From the NCBI RefSeq assembly GCF_048403405.1, contig NZ_CP183129.1: a stretch of 64,000 nt of DNA; one strand, 5' to 3'. Positions 5,631-47,611 of the stretch are shown here, piece by piece. Every line of letters begins with the position of its first letter. Position 1 is the stretch's first letter. The notes under the pieces were generated by a model, which searched no databases, had not been told where the DNA came from, and saw only the letters and a list, made by a program, of their open reading frames with translations. The position numbers and the translations under genes were made by a program. The DNA is from Escherichia coli (GTDB lineage Bacteria > Pseudomonadota > Gammaproteobacteria > Enterobacterales > Enterobacteriaceae).

Positions 5631-6892
5631 CAGCGCCAAACTCCTTTGGCATCGACGACATACTGCTGATGGACATTGTCGCCATTGATAACTTTGAACT
5701 GACTATGATCGACCAGCATCACCAGCACGTCTGCCGTTGCCAGCGCCTCGTCAAGCTGCGCCAGTGTACAAAGCCCGGTCAGTTTTTTCGGCAACTGGTG
5801 GATGTTAGGCTCAACAACCAGCGTTTCGCCGCTGTGCCACTGGGCGATCAGTTCAGCGATTTCCATCGCCGGGCTTTCGCGCAGGTCATCAATATTCGGT
5901 TTAAACGCCAGACCAAAGCAGGCGATTTTCAGTTCACTGGCGCGTTTATCGGTAGCAGCAAGGCAGTCGGCAACCGCCGCTTTCACCTGATCGATAACCC
6001 AGAACGGTTTGTGATCGTTCACTTCGCGCGCAGTACGGATAAGCCGCGCCTGCTGGGGGTTCTGTGCCACGATAAACCACGGATCAACAGCGATGCAGTG
6101 ACCGCCCACGCCAGGGCCAGGCTGAAGAATATTGACGCGAGGGTGGCGATTCGCCAGGCGAATCAGTTCCCAGACGTTAATTCCCTGATCGGCACAAATC
6201 AGCGACAGTTCGTTAGCAAAAGCGATATTCACATCGCGGAAGCTGTTTTCGGTGAGCTTACACATTTCCGCCGTCCGCGAGTTAGTGACGACACACTCAC
6301 CTTCGAGGAAAATTTTGTACAGTTCGCTGGCGCGGGCCGAACAAACCGGCGTCATACCACCAATCACGCGATCGTTTTTAATCAGCTCGACCATTACCTG
6401 GCCCGGTAACACGCGTTCCGGGCAGTAAGCAATGTTGACGTCCGCCTGCTCGCCCACCTGCTGCGGGAAAGTGAGATCTGGACGCATCTCTGCTAACCAT
6501 TCTGCCATCTTCTCGGTTGACCCCACCGGCGAGGTGGATTCAAGGATCACCAGCGCGCCTTTTTTCAGCACTGGCGCAATGGAGCGAGCAGCCGATTCAA
6601 CGTAGGTCATATCTGGCTCATGATCGCCTTTAAACGGCGTGGGTACAGCAATCAGCCAGGCATCCGCTTCAACTGGCGTCGTGCTCGCTCGTAAAAAACC
6701 GCCTTCTACGGCAGTTTTTACTACGCTCGCCAAATCAGGTTCGACGATATGGATTTCGCCACGATTGATGGTATCAACCGCATGTTTGTTGATATCGACA
6801 CCAATCACCTGTTTTTGCCGAGAGGCAAACGCAGCTGCTGTAGGCAGCCCGATGTAACCCAGTCCGATAACAGAAATGGTCGCAAAACTCAT
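5630..6892 (-). CDS. wecC: UDP-N-acetyl-D-mannosamine dehydrogenase WecC
   Basis: 420-aa [25 protein letters not shown]...; ATG at 6890-6892; 1-nt overlap with rffG start. Confidence 0.93.
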
Positions 6893-8019
6893 AGTGATAT
6901 CCGATTATTTTTTAACGCTTCCAGAATGCGAGAGCATGCCTGACCATCACCATACGGGTTATGGGCGCGGCTCATAGCTTGATATTCGTTTTCGTCTTTT
7001 AAAAGACGCGTCACTTCCTCGACAATTCGCTGCTTATCCGTGCCTACCAGACGCACCGTACCCGCCGTCACCGCTTCCGGACGCTCAGTGGTATCGCGCA
7101 TTACCAGCACCGGTTTCCCCAGCGAAGGCGCTTCTTCCTGAATGCCGCCTGAGTCGGTCAAAATCAGCCAGGCGTGGTTCATCAGCCAGACAAACGGTAA
7201 ATACTCCTGGGGATCGATCAGAATGACATTTTTCACGTGCCCCAGAATGCGATTGACCGGCTCTCTGACGTTCGGGTTGAGATGCACTGGATAGACAATC
7301 TGGATGTCCTGGTGCGTGGTGGCGATGTCTGCCAGCGCATGGCAGATTTCTTCAAAGCCACGACCGAAGCTCTCACGCCTGTGACCGGTCACCAGAATCA
7401 TTTTTTTATTGGGGTCGATAAACGGGTAATTTGCCGCCAGTTCTGAACGCAGCGTATCGCTGCTCATCACCTGGTCACGCACCCATAACAGTGCATCAAT
7501 AACTGTATTACCGGTAATGAAGATTCGGCTGTCAGCAACATTTTCACGCAGCAAGTTTTGCCGGGAAGTTTCGGTTGGAGAGAAGTGATACATCGCCAGA
7601 TGCCCGGTCAATGTACGGTTAGCCTCTTCCGGCCACGGCGAATAGAGATCGCCCGTGCGCAGACCAGCCTCAACGTGACCAACAGGAATACGCTGATAAA
7701 ACGCCGCCAGGCTGGTTGCCAGCGTCGTCGTAGTATCGCCGTGAACCAGCACGACGTCTGGTTTGAACTCGGCAAGAATTGGTTTTAGCCCTTCCAGAAT
7801 CCGACAGGTTATCTCTGTCAGGCCCTGTCCTGGCTGCATTATGTTGAGATCGTAGTCAGGTACAATGGAAAAGAGTTTCAGCACCTGATCGAGCATCTCC
7901 CGATGCTGCGCAGTGACGCAAACTTTAGCCTCAAAAAAAGGATCTTTTGCCAACGCATGCACCAACGGAGCCATCTTGATGGCTTCCGGGCGCGTACCAA
8001 ATACAGTCAGTACTTTCAC
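6889..8019 (-). CDS. wecB: UDP-GlcNAc 2-epimerase WecB
   Basis: ORF frame 6889-8061; canonical N-terminus (M)[19 protein letters not shown] corresponds to GTG at 8017-8019 (376 aa); upstream in-frame GTG at 8061 is the alternative. Confidence 0.88.
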
Positions 8020-8074
8020 ATCGATTCTCTTCGAATAAGCGGCGAGCGCCTTTGCGCTCACCGCAGCAGTGTTG

Positions 8075-38092: not shown

Positions 38093-39520
38093 ATGAGCGA
38101 TAAAAAGAAGCGCAGTATGGCGGGTTTGCCGTGGATCGCGGCGATGGCCTTCTTCATGCAGGCACTTGATGCCACTATTCTGAATACCGCCTTACCCGCA
38201 ATCGCTCATAGCCTTAATCGTTCTCCTCTCGCGATGCAATCAGCCATCATCAGTTATACGCTGACGGTGGCGATGCTTATTCCGGTAAGCGGATGGCTAG
38301 CCGATCGCTTCGGTACGCGTCGCATATTTACCCTTGCCGTGAGTCTGTTCACGTTGGGTTCTCTGGCCTGCGCACTTTCTAACTCGCTACCACAGCTGGT
38401 TGTCTTCCGGGTTATTCAGGGGATAGGCGGCGCAATGATGATGCCTGTTGCTCGGCTGGCCTTACTGCGCGCTTATCCTCGTAATGAGCTTCTTCCTGTA
38501 TTGAATTTTGTCGCCATGCCGGGTCTGGTGGGGCCAATTTTAGGCCCCGTTCTTGGCGGCGTGCTGGTCACCTGGGCAACCTGGCACTGGATATTTTTAA
38601 TCAATATCCCCATAGGTATTGCGGGCCTTCTTTACGCGCGCAAACATATGCCCAATTTCACCACCGCACGACGCAGATTCGATATCACTGGCTTTTTGCT
38701 GTTTGGCCTTAGCCTTGTTCTCTTCTCAAGCGGAATAGAGCTATTCGGGGAAAAGATTGTCGCCAGTTGGATTGCCTTGACGGTAATTGTCACCAGCATC
38801 GGGTTACTGCTTCTCTATATTCTCCATGCACGACGCACGCCAAACCCATTAATTTCATTAGATTTATTTAAAACCCGCACTTTCTCGATCGGTATCGTAG
38901 GCAATATTGCAACCCGTCTGGGGACCGGCTGTGTACCGTTCCTTATGCCATTGATGTTACAGGTAGGATTTGGTTATCAGGCGTTTATTGCCGGCTGTAT
39001 GATGGCACCGACAGCGTTAGGTTCCATTATTGCAAAATCGATGGTTACCCAAGTCTTACGTCGTCTGGGCTATCGCCATACGTTAGTGGGGATCACGGTG
39101 ATTATTGGGCTAATGATCGCTCAGTTCTCTTTGCAATCACCAGCAATGGCGATATGGATGCTGATCTTGCCGTTGTTTATATTAGGGATGGCTATGTCGA
39201 CGCAATTTACCGCAATGAATACCATCACACTTGCCGATCTGACCGATGACAACGCCAGCAGCGGTAACAGTGTTCTGGCGGTCACGCAGCAACTGTCTAT
39301 CAGTTTAGGCGTTGCTGTAAGTGCGGCCGTCCTTCGCGTTTATGAAGGGATGGAAGGTACAACGACTGTCGAACAATTCCACTATACGTTTATCACAATG
39401 GGCATTATTACTGTTGCTTCAGCAGCAATGTTCATGCTTCTGAAAACAACCGATGGTAATAATTTGATCAAAAGACAGCGTAAATCTAAGCCGAACCGCG
39501 TTCCATCAGAATCGGAGTAA
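38093..39520 (+). CDS. hsrA: MFS transporter HsrA (YieO)
   Basis: 475-aa ORF, polytopic membrane protein with MFS-type repeated hydrophobic segments; ATG at 38093. Confidence 0.92.
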
Positions 39521-40478
39521 GTTGTAATCGTTGTTGCTGAAGGGTCGGTTGGGTTATCCGATGGATGAGTACATCAATCGCCAGCTCCCCCAGTTCATCT
39601 TTCGGTTGGTGGATAGTGGTTAATGGTGGCGTCATAAAGCTTGCCAGTTCGATATCGTCATAGCCAATCACCGCGATATCCTGCGGAACCTGTAACTCTG
39701 CCTGATACAGCGCCTGGTAAACGCCAACAGCCATAGCGTCATTTCCGGTAAAGACGGCCTGAGGACGCAGCGGGTGTGATAACAGTTGGCGCATAGCGTC
39801 AAACCCGCCGTTAAATTCAAAATCACCAGTGACTTCATAGCCATCAGGAATGTTGAGGCCCGCACGTTTCATCGCCGTCCGATAACCTTCCAACCGCAGG
39901 CGCGCCGGAGTTTTATCCAGCGGACCGGTAATACAGGCGATACGGGTATGACCTTTATCGATCAGATATTGCGTTGCTAAGTCTCCGCCCAGCAACGAGT
40001 TATCCTGAATAAGATCGCTGTCGCCATCGAACGGAGCCCAGTCCATCATCACAGTAGGCACTGTCGGATAACGTTGCATGATTTCACGCGAAGGTTGATG
40101 CGTTTCGGTGCACAGTAACAGCAAGCCATCAACGCGTTTTTGCATCAGCGTTTCCAGATTGCGATTCATCCGCTGTTCATCGCCTTCGGTATTGCAAAGG
40201 ACGAGACTATAACCGCGTTCGAAGCAGCTGCGTTCAACGCCACGCACCAGTTCTGAATAGAAAGGATTGGTACTGGCAGTGATCAACATGCCAATGGTAT
40301 GTGTTTGATTGAGTTTGAGGCTACGCGCCAGGGCTGATGGCGCGTAATTGAGTTCTTTAATCGCCGCTTCAACTTTGGCGGTAATCGCTTCACTGACGAA
40401 GCGATCTTTATTGATAACGTGAGAAACTGTTGAGGTAGAAACGCCCGCCAGGCGGGCAACATCTTTCATTGTAGCCAA
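39486..40478 (-). CDS. rbsR: ribose operon repressor RbsR (LacI family)
   Basis: 330-aa [58 protein letters not shown] (LacI HTH); 3' end overlaps hsrA 3' end. Confidence 0.96.
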
Positions 40479-40481
40479 GCG

Positions 40482-41411
40482 TCACCTCTGCCTGTCTAAA
40501 AATGCGTCGATCTCTTCACGCCACGGTACGGAAGGTTGTGCGCCTTTACGTGTTACGGCAATCGCAGCGGCAGCATGGGCAAACCGAATCGCCTCTGGCA
40601 ATGGTTTTTCTTCCAGCAATGCCGTGATTAACGCGCCGTTAAAGGTATCTCCGGCAGCAATGGTATCGACAGCCTGCACCCGGAATCCAGGAACGCGCTG
40701 ACCTTCACCATTCACGCTAACCCATACACCACGACTTCCTAAAGTAATCAGTACAGTACGGATACCTTTTTCATGCAGTACCTGCGCCGCCTTCGCTGCA
40801 TCTTCATCATTTTCAACACGAATACCGGTGAGCTTTTCTGCTTCCGTTTCGTTTGGCGTAATAATGTCCACCAGCGCCAGCAGTTCGTCAGGAAGTTCGC
40901 GAGCCGGAGCCGGGTTAAGCGCAACGATAGTCTTATTTTGATGGGCGATTTTCGCCGCTGCCATCACACTTTCGAGTGGTGATTCCAGCTGCATTAATAA
41001 TGCTGACGCGTTGGCAATACGCTCACGTTGCGCTTCCACCAGCGCCGGGGAAAGGGCAGCATTAGCGCCGGCATGAATACCGATGACATTCTCACCTTCG
41101 CCATTAACAAAAATCAGCGCCACACCTGTTGATTCGCCTTTGATCACGCTGACCGGAGAAATATCGATGTTATCAGTGGCGAGCTGCTGGCGAACGCTCT
41201 CACCAATGCTGTCATCGCCAGTGCAGGCAATAAACGCGATATTCGCACCGCTACGCCCAGCAGCCACAGCCTGATTCGCGCCTTTGCCGCCAAATGCAAC
41301 CTGATAGTGGTTACCGGTTACGGTTTCGCCTGGGGTAGGAAAAGATTGAAGATTAAGAATGTGGTCAGCATTAATGCTGCCAAGAACAACGAGGCTGCCT
41401 GCGTTTTGCAT
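40482..41411 (-). CDS. rbsK: ribokinase RbsK
   Basis: 309 aa from ATG at 41409-41411 (MQNAGSLVVLGSINADHILNL...); PfkB family GG and DTxxAGD motifs; track ORF starts at an upstream GTG. Confidence 0.95.
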   Translation of the reverse strand: MQNAGSLVVLGSINADHILNLQSFPTPGETVTGNHYQVAFGGKGANQAVAAGRSGANIAFIACTGDDSIGESVRQQLATDNIDISPVSVIKGESTGVALIFVNGEGENVIGIHAGANAALSPALVEAQRERIANASALLMQLESPLESVMAAAKIAHQNKTIVALNPAPARELPDELLALVDIITPNETEAEKLTGIRVENDEDAAKAAQVLHEKGIRTVLITLGSRGVWVSVNGEGQRVPGFRVQAVDTIAAGDTFNGALITALLEEKPLPEAIRFAHAAAAIAVTRKGAQPSVPWREEIDAFLDRQR

Positions 41412-41536
41412 ATTCGGGATGTCCATAAAATGCGCCACCGTGTTAGGGTGGCGCGTGCCCTGCTTTTCTTTATATTACACGTTCATCTGTCGATGACGTA
41501 TTTATGTCACCATCAGGTCATACAACCTGATTAATA

Positions 41537-42427
41537 CTACTGCTTAACAACCAGTTTCAGATCAACCGGATACTTAGCCTGAACTTTCTCGCCTTTCAGC
41601 ACTTTATCTGCGGTTTCGACGCCTTTCGCGCCAATCTGATCGGGTAGCTGAGCGATAGTCGCTGCTAGTTTGCCATCATTCACCGCTTTTTCGCCATCCG
41701 GTGTACCGTCAAATCCGACGACCATCACATCCGATTTACCGGCAGTTTGCAGTGCGCGCAGCGCGCCCAGCGCCATTTCATCATTCTGCGCGAATACAGC
41801 CTGAACATCCGGATGAGCGGTCAACAGGTTCTGCATTACGTTCAAACCTTTGGTGCGATCAAAATCTGCTGGCTGGCTGGCAAGAACATTAAACTTGTGA
41901 GCAGCAACGGCCTGCTGGAAGCCTTCGCCACGTTCACGGGCTGCGGATGTACCAGCAATGCCTTGCAGCTCGATAACTTTGGCACCTTCGCCCGCTTTCT
42001 TCGCGATGTAATCACCGGCGATTTTGCCGCCCAGTACGTTATCAGAAGCAATGTGGCTCACCACTTCACCTTTCGTTGCCTGGCGGTCAAGAGTGATAAC
42101 CGGGATGTTCGCCTGATTAGCCATCTTCACAGCATTACCCACTGCGTCGGAGTCGGTCGGGTTAATCAGCAGAATTTTGGTGCCGCGAACGGTTAAGTCC
42201 TGCACGTTCGCCAGCTCTTTCGCCGGGTTGTTCTGGGAGTCCAGCACCACCAGGTTATAGCCAAGTTTATCCGCCTCTTTCTGCGCGCCATCTTTCAGCG
42301 ATACAAAGAACGGGTTGTTAAGCGTGGAGACCACCAGCGCGATGGTATCTTTTGCCATCGCATTCGCACTGACGGTGGCGCTTAGCGCAACAGCGGAAAC
42401 CAGGGTAGCCAGTTTTTTCATGTTCAT
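41537..42427 (-). CDS. rbsB: ribose ABC transporter periplasmic binding protein RbsB
   Basis: 296 aa from [34 protein letters not shown] (signal peptide then mature protein). Confidence 0.95.
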
Positions 42428-42451
42428 ATTCAAGATGTCCTGTAGTCGTTA

Positions 42452-43417
42452 TTACTGCTTTTTGTTGTCTACCAGCACCGCCAGCAAAATCACCACCGCT
42501 TTGACGATCATCTGGTAATAGGAGGAAACACCTAACAAATTCAATCCATTATTAAGGAAGCCAAGAATTAATGCGCCGATCAACGTCCCAACAATGCGAC
42601 CTTTTCCGCCCGCCAGACTCGTACCGCCCAGAACCACCGCAGCAATAGCATCCAGCTCATAGCCAGTCCCCGCCGTGGGTTGTGCGGAGGAGAGACGCGC
42701 CACTTCAATGATCCCGGCCAGCGATGCCAGCAGACCACAAAGAGAATAGACGATGATTTTGATTTTATTGACGTTGATACCAGAAAGACGCGTTGCCGCT
42801 TCGTTGCCGCCCAGCGCGTAGATGTAACGCCCCAGACGCGTGTGATGCAGCATGTACCAGGCCGCGAGGAAGACAATCCCCATGATCCAGACTGGCGTCG
42901 GTACGCCCAGCGGACGACCGATCCCAAACCAGCCAAACAGATCGGCGTTCTCAGTAAAGCCGGTATTCACTGGGCTACCGTTGGTATAAACCATGGTCAC
43001 GCCGCGCAGTAAAAGCATCATAACCAGCGTAGCGATAAACGCCTGGACGCGACCTTTCGCTACAATCACCCCGGTTACCGCACCAATTGCGGCACCTAAT
43101 GCGAGAGCAGCAGCGACAGCCACCAGCGCATTGACTTCAATGCCAACGATAGATGCAGCAACTGCGCCGGTCAGCGCCAACAGAGAACCTACCGACAAGT
43201 CGATGCCCGACGTCAGGATCACCAGCGTCATCCCGACTGCCATAATGGCGTTCACCGAGGTTTGCTGGAGAATATTGAATAAGTTATTGATGGTGAAAAA
43301 GTTCGGACTTAACGTCGAGACAATCGCGATCAGCACCAGCAGAGCGATAAGCGATTTCTGCTCCATCAGCCACGCTTTCGTGAAATAACGGCGACCAGAG
43401 ACAGTCTGGGTTGTCAT
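42452..43417 (-). CDS. rbsC: ribose ABC transporter permease RbsC
   Basis: 321-aa polytopic membrane ORF MTTQTVSGRRYFTKAWLMEQKSLIALLVLIAIVSTL... Confidence 0.95.
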   Translation of the reverse strand: MTTQTVSGRRYFTKAWLMEQKSLIALLVLIAIVSTLSPNFFTINNLFNILQQTSVNAIMAVGMTLVILTSGIDLSVGSLLALTGAVAASIVGIEVNALVAVAAALALGAAIGAVTGVIVAKGRVQAFIATLVMMLLLRGVTMVYTNGSPVNTGFTENADLFGWFGIGRPLGVPTPVWIMGIVFLAAWYMLHHTRLGRYIYALGGNEAATRLSGINVNKIKIIVYSLCGLLASLAGIIEVARLSSAQPTAGTGYELDAIAAVVLGGTSLAGGKGRIVGTLIGALILGFLNNGLNLLGVSSYYQMIVKAVVILLAVLVDNKKQ

Positions 43418-43421
43418 TTTT

Positions 43422-44927
43422 TTACTCCTGATTCACGCGATTAAGCTTGCCCACAGCGGCAGCCATTAACACTTCCTGGGTGGCCTGCTCACGAGTAAAT
43501 TCCCCGCTGAGATGCCCTTCATGCATGACGATGATGCGATCGCTCATGCCTAATACTTCTGGCATCTCCGATGACACCAGAATGATGCTCAAGCCATCGG
43601 CTTTGAACTGGTTAATCAGTTGATAGATCTCTTTTTTCGCGCCGACATCTACGCCACGGGTAGGCTCATCGAGGATCAACACTTTGGGGCGTGTCATCAG
43701 ACCACGGGCAATCGCCACTTTTTGCTGATTGCCACCGGAAAGCAGACCAATTGCCTGTTCCATCGACGGCGTTTTCACATTAAACAGACGAATGAAATCA
43801 CTTACTGCCTGCTGTTCATCGGCATGCTTCAAACTGCCGCCAGCGCGGCTGAAGTAGCGCAGCGCGGTCAGCGACATATTCTCTTTTACTGACATGCCCA
43901 GCACTAAACCGTCACGTTTACGGTCTTCGGAGATATACACAATGCCGTTTGCCAGGCCATCCTGCGGTGAACGGGTAACAACTTCATGCCCATCCAGGGT
44001 GACGTAACCGCTGGTGCGCGGCAGTGCGCCGTAGAGCACTTTCATCAGTTCGGTACAACCTGCGCCCATCAAACCAGAGACGCCAAGAATTTCGCCTTTG
44101 CGTAAAGTAAAAGAGACATCGTTAACGCCAGGTCCGCAGAGATTATCGACTTTCAGGCGAATATCTCCTGGCGCTTTGTCCAGGTGCGGATATTGATCTT
44201 CCAGCTTGCGGCCCACCATCATCTCAATCAGCGAATCTTCGGTCAGTGATGCTACTTCACGCTCAGCAATAAATTGCCCATCACGAAAAACGGTAACGTC
44301 ATCGCAAATCTCGAAGATTTCTTTCATGCGGTGGGAAATATAGACAATACCGCGGCCTTGCGATTTCAGCTCGCGGATGACGCGGAACAAGGATTCGGTT
44401 TCGGTATCGGTCAGCGCATCGGTCGGTTCATCCATAATGATGACTTTCGACTCAAAGCTCAGCACTTTGGCGATTTCAACCATTTGCTGGTCACCGATGG
44501 AAAGATCGCCCACTAACTTGTCGCTTTTAAAGCGCAGGTTAAGTTTAGCCAGCAATTTATCCGCTTCGGCATACATGGTTTTCCAGTCAATTTTGCCAAA
44601 GCGATTAACAAACTCACGACCGAGGAAAATGTTTTCGGCAATGGTCAACTGCGGGATCAGGTTCAGTTCCTGATGGATAATCCCAATCCCGGCTTCCTGG
44701 GAAGATTTCGGCCCGGTAAACGTCGTTTCTTTCCCCAGCCATAAAAGCGTACCGGCATCGCGAGTATAGATACCCGTAAGCACTTTCATCATGGTGGATT
44801 TACCCGCACCGTTTTCGCCCACCAGCGCCATCACGCGGCCAGGATAGACATTTAACGCTGCACCCGAGAGGGCTTTTACGCCCGGGAAGGCTTTATCGAT
44901 GCCTTTAAGCTGAAGTAATGCTTCCAT
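43422..44927 (-). CDS. rbsA: ribose ABC transporter ATP-binding protein RbsA (tandem ABC domains)
   Basis: 501-aa ORF with two Walker A motifs ([18 protein letters not shown]) and two LSGG signatures. Confidence 0.96.
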
Positions 44928-44934
44928 GACGGCC

Positions 44935-45354
44935 TCAGAACGTCACGCCAGCACAGAGAATGATATTCGCATACGGAGAACATTCTCCGCTGCGAATTAC
45001 CGCCTGACTTTCTGCGGTTTGTTGTTTGAATTGTTCATGCGTGGTGTAACGAATTTCAATGGTATTTCCCTGGTGTTTTTGCAGCTGCTCAAAGTGAGTG
45101 AGCAACGTTTCGTGGAGTTGCGGATTATGTTGTTTGATCTCTTCCGCGATAATGGCTGCCTCGACCTGCATTTCATTTGTGACGACGCCCAGCACCTGCA
45201 TAAAAGAAGGTACACCCTGGGTTAATGCCATATCGATACGCGTTGTACTTTTGGGGATGGGTAAACCTGCATCACACACCACCAGCGTATCGGTATGTCC
45301 CAGTCGGGAGATCACCGATGAAATATCAGAATTAAGAACGGTGCCTTTTTTCAT
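44935..45354 (-). CDS. rbsD: D-ribose pyranase RbsD
   Basis: 139 aa from ATG at 45352-45354 ([34 protein letters not shown]...), SD ggag 6 nt upstream. Confidence 0.94.
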
Positions 45355-45366
45355 TTTTTTCTCCAT

Positions 45367-45384
45367 CAGCGAAACGTTTCGCTG
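45367..45384. promoter_or_regulatory. Probable RbsR operator (perfect 18-bp palindrome) at the rbsD 5' end
   Basis: cagcgaaacgtttcgctg is a perfect inverted repeat of LacI/GalR-operator type, immediately upstream of the rbsD SD. Confidence 0.75.
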
Positions 45385-45520
45385 ACCCGCAGTTTAATCC
45401 TGACTGAGTTGGGAAAACCATCATGACGTTACGGAAATGTGATCAACCTCGAAACGTTTTACATGGTGATTAACCATGAAAACAAAAACGCCCCCTTATG
45501 GAGAAAGGAGGCGTCTGGCG

Positions 45521-47389
45521 TTAGATTTCGACCTGAGTACCCAGTTCGATAACCCTGTTTGGCGGGATTTCAAATTGATCTGGTGCACGCAGCGCATTAC
45601 GTTGCAGCAGCAAGTACAGTTTGCCGCGCAGACGCAAATACCACGGGCGTTTGCCGAGGATCAACGACTCATGCGACATAAAGAAGGAGGTTTCCATCAT
45701 CCGGCAACTTAATCCTTCCAGACCGCAGCGGTGGAAAACTTCTTCCACGTTTGGCGTTTCTCGCCAACCATAACTTGCTACCACGCGCCAGAAAGTGGGC
45801 GACAGTTGTTCAATCTGTACCCGACGGACGTTATGGACATAAGGCGCGTCTTCGGTGCGCAGAGTTAACAGAATCACCCGCTCATGCAATACCTTGTTAT
45901 GTTTAAGGTTATGCATCAGCGCAAAGGGAATGACGTTGATTGCACGTGACATATACACCGCGGTCCCGGGCACGCGAACGGGCGGTGATTTCTCCAGCGA
46001 AGCAATCATCGCTTCCAGAGAGTTACCATGTTCATGCCTCCGCCGCAGCAAACGGAAACGTTCGCTCTTCCAGGTGGTCATCACGATAAACATCACCGTA
46101 CCGAGGCTCAATGGCAACCAGCCGCCGGAGAGCAGTTTATCGAGGTTAGCGGTGAACAATGGAATATCGACACAAAGGAAAGCAATCAGGATCAGCGCAA
46201 CAAAATACTTATTCCAGTGCCAGTTCTGACGCGCCACGGTAGTCGAGAGAATAGACGTCAGCACCATGGTTCCGGTCACCGCAATCCCGTACGCCGCCGC
46301 CAGGTTGCTGGAGTGCTCAAAGCTGACAATCACAATCACGACCGCGACATAGAGCATCCAGTTCACAAACGGAATATAGATTTGCCCTGACTCCATTTCG
46401 GAGGTGTGAATAATGCGCATCGGCGACAAATATCCCAGACGTACCGCCTGACGCGTCAATGAGAAGACGCCAGAGATAACCGCCTGCGAGGCAATTACCG
46501 TCGCCAGTGCGGCGATGATCAGCAGCGGGATCAGCGCCCAGTCCGGTGCCAACAGGAAGAACGGGTTCTTAATCGCTTCCGGGTTCTTTAACAACAACGC
46601 TCCCTGACCGAAGTAATTAAGGGTCAAGGAAGGTAATACGACGGTGAACCACGCCAGGCGAATAGGGAACTTACCAAAGTGCCCCATATCAGCATACAGC
46701 GCCTCGACCCCCGTAATCGACAGCACCACTGCCCCTAATGCAATAAAAGAAACCGTTTTGTATTCAAGGAAGAAATGCACCGCCCACATCGGATTCAGCG
46801 CATGCAGCACTTCCGGGTTAGCAATAATGCTACGTAACCCCAGTACTGCCAGAATCAAAAACCAGGTCAGCATGATCGGCGCAAACAGCTTACCGACCAT
46901 AGCCGTGCCATGTTTTTGAATCATAAATAGTAAAGTGAGAACGATGATTGAGAGGGGAACTATCCAGGTATCCAGCTGCGGGGCGACGATTTCCAGACCT
47001 TCAATGGCTGACATCACCGAAATAGCGGGTGTTATGACGACTTCACCATAGAAAAAGCTGCCGCCGATTAGCCCCATAATCACCAGCATTGATGTGGTTC
47101 GCGCCGACGTATTACGCCCGGCAAGCGACATCAACGTCAGGATCCCCCCTTCACCGGCGTTATCTGCCCGCATCACGAAGGTGAGATATTTAATGGAAAC
47201 CACAAAGATTAGCAGCCAGAAGATCAGCGATAAAAAGCCAAACACGGCATCGCGTTCAACGCCAAAACCAAACTGGCCGGACAAACATTCACGAAGTGTA
47301 TATAACGGGCTGGTACCAATATCGCCGTAGACAACTCCAATCGCCGCGAGGGTAATCGCGGGCAATGATTGCTTATTATCAGTGCTCAT
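45521..47389 (-). CDS. kup: low-affinity K+ uptake transporter Kup (TrkD)
   Basis: 622-aa [37 protein letters not shown]...; KUP/HAK family. Confidence 0.96.
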
Positions 47390-47611
47390 AGACTAGTCTT
47401 TCGTTGAAATATGAAATGTGTGCTTAGTCCCTTGGCCCACAAAAAAGCGCACAGTATGCACGATTAACGGCAAAATCGTACTCCTAAATGCGGCCACATT
47501 AACCTGGCTCAAAGAAAAATACCCCCCCTTTGAGACTATTTTAGCCACCAGCAAGAAACGTCTATACTCGCAATTTACGCAGAACTTTTGACGAAAGGAC
47601 GCCACTTCATT

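Follow-up and report, generated by a model that had tools for sequence, protein, structure and literature searches.

A perfect 20-bp palindrome upstream of Escherichia coli rbsD corresponds to the RbsR operator rbsO and is accompanied by a candidate second RbsR-type box

Introduction

Escherichia coli's ribose operon, rbsDACBKR, is preceded by a perfect palindrome in the 64,000-nucleotide stretch of chromosome analyzed here (hereafter, the window). An initial annotation, made from the letters of the window, described an 18-bp palindrome and considered it consistent with the operator of RbsR, the repressor of the operon. The locus raises two questions: whether this palindrome is the operator through which RbsR controls the ribose genes, and whether that control relies on a single site.

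E. coli RbsR is presented as a ribose-responsive repressor in papers that refer to Mauzy & Hermodson 1992. RbsR has been co-crystallized with a 30-mer oligonucleotide designated 'rbsO', GTGGGTCAGCGAAACGTTTCGCTGATGGAG (bioRxiv 10.1101/2025.04.02.646877; PDB 9ny7/9ny8). In the RbsR-rbsO structure, hinge helices insert into the minor groove, and the DNA shows a 45-degree bend (bioRxiv 10.1101/2025.04.02.646877). Synthetic circuits have employed the wild-type 'rbsDACBK operator' as a functional operator under RbsR control, and RbsR from Serratia shifts an rbsD probe in a reaction that is abolished by 1% ribose.

Results

The palindrome lies between kup and an intact ribose operon

The window derives from the E. 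coli chromosome: several complete genomes contain the 901 bp around the palindrome at 100% identity, and the stretch around it has a match in 5411 of 5426 genomes. The palindrome is located on the minus-strand path between kup and rbsDACBKR, in a kup-rbsD gap of 166 bp. The genes of the locus are as follows.

47389-45521, minus strand: kup, the annotated upstream neighbor
44935-45354, minus strand: rbsD, D-ribose pyranase, 139 amino acids, first gene of the operon (full-length match to NCBIfam equivalog NF008761)
43422-44927, minus strand: rbsA, part of the transport/kinase set under operon control (NCBIfam equivalog, full length)
42452-43417, minus strand: rbsC, same set (NCBIfam equivalog, full length)
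41537-42427, minus strand: rbsB, same set (NCBIfam equivalog, full length)
40482-41411, minus strand: rbsK, same set (NCBIfam equivalog, full length)
39486-40478, minus strand: rbsR, ribose repressor of the LacI/GalR family, 330 amino acids, last gene of the operon (equivalog NF007743, full length, 696.8 bits)

Each of the six rbs products thus has a full-length match to the corresponding NCBIfam equivalog. The initial annotation had assumed that the repressor is encoded at the other end of the operon, and rbsR is indeed found there, intact; the best PDB matches of its product are 9ny7/9ny8, 'Ribose operon repressor' (E = 3.6e-220).

Several minor features of the locus deserve mention. An in-frame ATG at 45364-45366 lies 12 nt upstream of the annotated rbsD ATG (45352-45354) and begins on the final base of the palindrome. 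We rejected this ATG as the start of rbsD (it would yield a mechanically called open reading frame of 143 amino acids), as the annotated and family-matched protein has 139 amino acids and begins at 45354. Comparison of the locus (39486-45520) with that of K-12 revealed substitutions in RbsD (H75Q and L88F), RbsA (R291C), RbsB (I192T), RbsK (T85S and A231V), and RbsR (A201T). An Rfam scan of 39000-47600 returned no family at about 41430-41660, the window equivalent of the region over the end of rbsB and the following spacer in which the K-12 annotation places the small RNA RbsZ.

The palindrome spans 20 bp and is centered on CpG

The sequence CAGCGAAACGTTTCGCTG occupies 45367-45384, the exact coordinates of the initial annotation, and is the sole match in the window even when up to 3 mismatches are allowed. 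The dyad gains one further pair (T45366/A45385), so that the real palindrome is perfect over 20 bp rather than 18 (TCAGCGAAACGTTTCGCTGA, 45366-45385). Its center is a CpG, C45375/G45376. Operators of the LacI/GalR type are dyads of about 16-20 bp with a central CpG, and the CG-centered architecture that had been read into the site is thus borne out. We designate the palindrome O1.

45366-45385, no strand assigned: O1, rbsO, the primary RbsR operator (perfect 20-bp CG-centered palindrome, match to the rbsO oligonucleotide, conservation)
45369-45382, no strand assigned: GCGAAACGTTTCGC, the invariant 14-bp core of O1 (exact in 80 of 80 species)

TCAGCGAAACGTTTCGCTGA is the longest perfect palindrome of the window; the runner-up has 16 bp. 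When the window was simulated 300 times with a first-order Markov model, perfect palindromes of 18 bp or more arose in 73 simulated windows (0.24) and those of 20 bp or more in 20 (0.067). Palindrome length by itself is therefore modest, weakly significant evidence at the scale of the window. The chance that such a palindrome lands in the 166-bp intergenic region between kup and rbsD is about 166 x 4^-10, or 1.6e-4. The 16-bp runner-up, CGTCTTTTAAAAGACG, lies at 6993-7008 within a minus-strand open reading frame of 390 amino acids (6889-8061).

The palindrome is identical to the published rbsO

The initial annotation had proposed comparison with the published rbs operator as a check. The rbsO oligonucleotide corresponds to 45390-45361 of the window, read on the minus strand, at 29 of 30 bases, and all 20 bases of the palindrome are identical. 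The sole mismatch is a single-nucleotide polymorphism at 45389, 4 nt outside the palindrome, where K-12 has T and the window has C; K-12 MG1655 matches the oligonucleotide at 30 of 30 bases. The A201T substitution, the only difference between the RbsR of the window and the K-12 protein, lies outside the DNA-binding domain, so that results obtained with K-12 carry over. The window and K-12 rbsO share the 20-bp palindrome, the flank on the Shine-Dalgarno side, the gene context, and the repressor; they differ in the flanking polymorphism and in A201T, from which no functional difference is expected. Three intergenic polymorphisms (45501, 45423, and 45389) distinguish the window from K-12, and none falls inside O1 or inside the upstream box O2, the CRP-like site, or the -10 hexamer described below.

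From its sequence, its identity to the published operator, its gene context, and its conservation, we conclude that the palindrome is almost certainly rbsO, the operator of RbsR at the E. coli ribose operon, as the initial annotation had suggested; binding, bending, and the response to ribose are taken from the literature. The palindrome is an already known operator that has been biochemically mapped, used in synthetic circuits, and solved with its repressor.

A 14-bp core of O1 is invariant among Enterobacteriaceae

Conservation was assessed in the rbsD loci of 80 other Enterobacteriaceae species, whose RbsD proteins are 86-99% identical and whose sequences amount to 218,682 bases. The core GCGAAACGTTTCGC is exact in all 80 and is centered 20-28 nt before the rbsD ATG. 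Apart from O1 and O2, no sequence in these 218,682 bases matches the core with 2 or fewer mismatches. The core columns have a mean identity of 1.0, compared with 0.45 for the 5-bp spacer that separates the -10 hexamer from the operator and 0.53 for the stretch upstream of O2. Only Escherichia has the full 20-bp dyad, and most genera have a dyad of 16 bp, AGCGAAACGTTTCGCT. In Proteus mirabilis, whose RbsD is 60% identical, CAGCGAAACGTTTCGCTG is present 20 nt before the ATG with an exact core. The layout is different in Vibrio species, which have a single ATCGAAACGTTTCGAT box 75-86 nt upstream of rbsD, and the regions upstream of rbsD in Photobacterium and Aeromonas also look different from those of Enterobacterales. 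Within E. coli, 5380 of the 5390 matched genomes have the 32-bp block that comprises the operator and the Shine-Dalgarno sequence at 100% identity. The value added by this cross-species footprint is modest: it delimits the invariant 14-bp core and brings to light the box O2.

O1 probably overlaps the transcription start

The minus strand between kup and rbsD contains, in order, a terminator hairpin of kup, a CRP-like site, the hexamer TAAACT, the palindrome, GGAG, and the rbsD ATG.

45486-45516, minus strand: terminator-like hairpin and T-run after kup, the upper limit of the rbs control region (terminator-type sequence)
45438-45453, no strand assigned: CRP-like site TGTGAtcaaccTCGAA, center 45445.5, at -61.5 from the predicted start (2 mismatches to consensus)
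45391-45396, minus strand: TAAACT, the predicted -10 hexamer of the rbs promoter (sequence; conserved as TAnACT, picked by hand)
45361-45364, minus strand: GGAG, the Shine-Dalgarno sequence of rbsD (begins 1 nt past the palindrome; ends 6 nt short of the ATG)

The hexamer is conserved as TAnACT, with column identities in the 80 species of 0.875 (T), 1.0 (A), 0.5 (n), 1.0 (A), 0.95 (C), and 1.0 (T), and TGGAG at the Shine-Dalgarno sequence is nearly invariant across species. A generic sigma-70 promoter scan of 45250-45650 returned no site, a result that is expected for a weak, activator-dependent promoter and is no proof of one. The conserved TAnACT predicts a transcription start near 45384 and, with it, a leader of about 30 nt, an operator that extends from about -1 to +19 (center +9.5), and a CRP-like site at -61.5. 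A search with the CRP consensus at 2 mismatches gave 18 matches in comparison with 26 expected by chance, so that a single match is not significant; the assignment of the CRP-like site therefore rests on its position and its conservation, the half-site GATCACA being invariant in the 80 species. Location of the CRP-like site at the canonical class I distance of -61.5 provides an internal consistency check on the predicted start.

The initial annotation had located the palindrome between the likely rbs promoter and the rbsD Shine-Dalgarno sequence. This placement holds in that the palindrome is downstream of the predicted -10 hexamer and directly upstream of the Shine-Dalgarno sequence, and requires modification in that the operator probably overlaps the predicted transcription start (about -1 to +19) instead of lying wholly within the leader. 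In 1992 Mauzy and Hermodson reportedly obtained an RbsR footprint on a perfectly dyad-symmetric region overlapping the start of rbs transcription. Several papers on RbsR contain no map of the rbs promoter.

A second RbsR-type box lies upstream of the promoter

In comparing the 80 loci, we found a second conserved box, O2, which is centered 80 bp upstream of O1 in the window.

45446-45465 (core 45449-45462), no strand assigned: O2, second RbsR-type box (core reads GTAAAACGTTTCGA on the minus strand)

A box with the AAACGTTT center is present 78-80 bp upstream of O1 in all 80 species, where its consensus is [T/A]GCGAAACGTTTCGA[T/C]. O2 differs from the O1 core by 1 mismatch in 71 of the 80 species and by 2 in another 4 (at most 2 mismatches in 75 of 80), and Proteus exhibits the same O2/CRP/O1 layout. 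The box is degenerate in Escherichia, the window included: 3 of the 14 core positions are mismatched, the distal half reads GTAAAAC instead of GCGAAAC, and two of the mismatches fall at positions that separate RbsR from PurR half-sites. The promoter-proximal half of O2, TTCGA, is also the distal half of the CRP-like site, which results in an overlap of about 11 bp. The conserved GCGAAA of O2 lies outside the 22-bp CRP footprint; thus, CRP alone cannot account for the conservation of O2.

According to a 2012 paper, the annotation of the E. coli rbs operon includes only a single RbsR site. Searchable papers do not contain the O2 sequences; RegPrecise and Laikova et al. 2001, which stood outside the search, may list the site. 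The conservation pattern raises the possibility, which we rate at slightly under an even chance, that control of the ribose operon in Enterobacterales involves two RbsR operators, O1 and the candidate O2, and not the single annotated one. In that case O2 would be an auxiliary operator comparable to lac O3 or gal OE. Degradation of the distal half-site of O2 in Escherichia (GCG to GTA) could explain why a single operator has been recorded in E. coli. The conserved candidate O2 is the only potentially new element of the locus.

Alternative roles for the palindrome

Three other explanations of the palindrome were weighed against its identification as rbsO. The first holds that the palindrome acts mainly as RNA, forming a hairpin at the 5' end of the rbsD leader that tunes mRNA stability or translation, with protein binding being secondary. 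The leader that begins at the predicted start does fold at its 5' end into a 7-bp stem with a 4-nt loop (-9.3 kcal/mol, z = -2.4), a structure matched in stability by 4 of 200 shuffled sequences, and this hairpin stops just before the Shine-Dalgarno sequence. However, such a hairpin is an inevitable by-product, because any transcribed palindromic operator folds in this way. Conservation of the CGAAACGTTTCG core is just as strong at O2, a box located upstream of the promoter and outside the leader, suggesting that the constraint acts at the level of DNA. Moreover, the outermost pairs of the stem are lost in most genera (TCAG...CTAG) without compensating changes, and the Rfam scan of 39000-47600 detected zero families at E values up to 1, so that the palindrome is not a known RNA element. 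A primarily RNA-level role also has to contend with the existing crystal structure of RbsR with DNA, and we consider such a role improbable.

The second explanation assigns the site to a paralogous regulator of the LacI family, PurR or CytR, in place of RbsR. The pur boxes of E. coli, the operators of PurR, are likewise CG-centered dyads (16 bp) with the AAACGTTT center, a center common to all of these motifs, and are bound by the closest paralogue of RbsR (E = 5e-95). Their half-site is GCAAAC, and that of rbsO is CGAAAC; the two differ at the positions that determine specificity. Comparative work indicates that PurR was born by duplication of RbsR and that the motifs of both are related; PurR binds DNA with its ligand, whereas RbsR binds without it. 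Assignment to PurR or CytR is difficult to reconcile with crystallization of this exact sequence with RbsR and with the presence of the site in front of ribose genes in every species sampled. We therefore regard it as highly improbable.

The third explanation, a palindrome that arose by chance or forms part of the kup terminator and has no regulatory role, is scarcely credible: although the simulations produced palindromes of at least 18 bp in 24% and of at least 20 bp in 6.7% of the 64-kb windows, chance is ruled out by the intergenic position and by a core that is invariant in 80 of 80 species compared with 45-53% identity in flanking spacer columns, and was rejected on this conservation and on the published complex, while identity with the kup terminator was rejected because the palindrome matches the published operator and has no T-run behind it, the terminator being a separate hairpin with a T-run at 45516-45486.

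Discussion

The identification of the palindrome as rbsO suggests a model for ribose-operon control. A dimer of RbsR, product of the last gene of the operon, would bind to the half-sites AGCGAAAC that flank the central CpG. The site would cover a weak promoter dependent on CRP from about -1 to +19, ending 1 nt before the ribosome-binding site of rbsD. Since the operator is located over the predicted start and next to this ribosome-binding site, RbsR bound to O1 would be expected to sterically block initiation or promoter clearance by RNA polymerase. Binding of D-ribose to RbsR, according to the literature, would lower its affinity for the operator and derepress the operon, and activation would be supplied by cAMP-CRP. 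O2, with its center about 79 bp upstream of that of O1 (approximately -71.5), would overlap the class I CRP site in its distal half. It is tempting to speculate that RbsR at O2 would exclude cAMP-CRP, a form of anti-activation, or possibly cooperate with O1.

The lac control region contains the primary operator O1 at +11, a CAP site at -61.5, and an auxiliary operator, O3, at -82. At its predicted positions the rbs region resembles lac in that its primary operator closely follows the start and its class I CRP site is centered at -61.5; the resemblance would extend to an auxiliary operator that adjoins or overlaps the CRP site only if O2 is functional. In contrast to the lac arrangement, O2 of rbs has about 11 bp in common with the CRP site, and the E. 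coli version of O2 is degenerate. The primary operators also differ, lacO1 having an extra central base relative to rbsO (bioRxiv 10.1101/2025.04.02.646877). Moreover, LacI is a tetramer that loops DNA, whereas RbsR behaves as a dimer (bioRxiv 10.1101/2025.04.02.646877), and the spacing of operators had no effect on an RbsR-based chimera (2012 paper).

Should O2 be functional, repression of rbs in Salmonella, Klebsiella, Enterobacter, Citrobacter, and Proteus would combine promoter block with CRP exclusion, and the rbs operon would have an atypical model in E. coli. As to O1, a reading of the sequence alone sufficed to locate a textbook operator of the LacI family.

A final observation concerns variation within E. 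coli. Among the 5411 genomes with a match to the wider locus, about 31 lack the exact 32-bp block of O1 and the Shine-Dalgarno sequence; 10 of these have a mismatch, and about 21 do not contain a 28-bp exact word. These genomes could be operator variants or local rearrangements.
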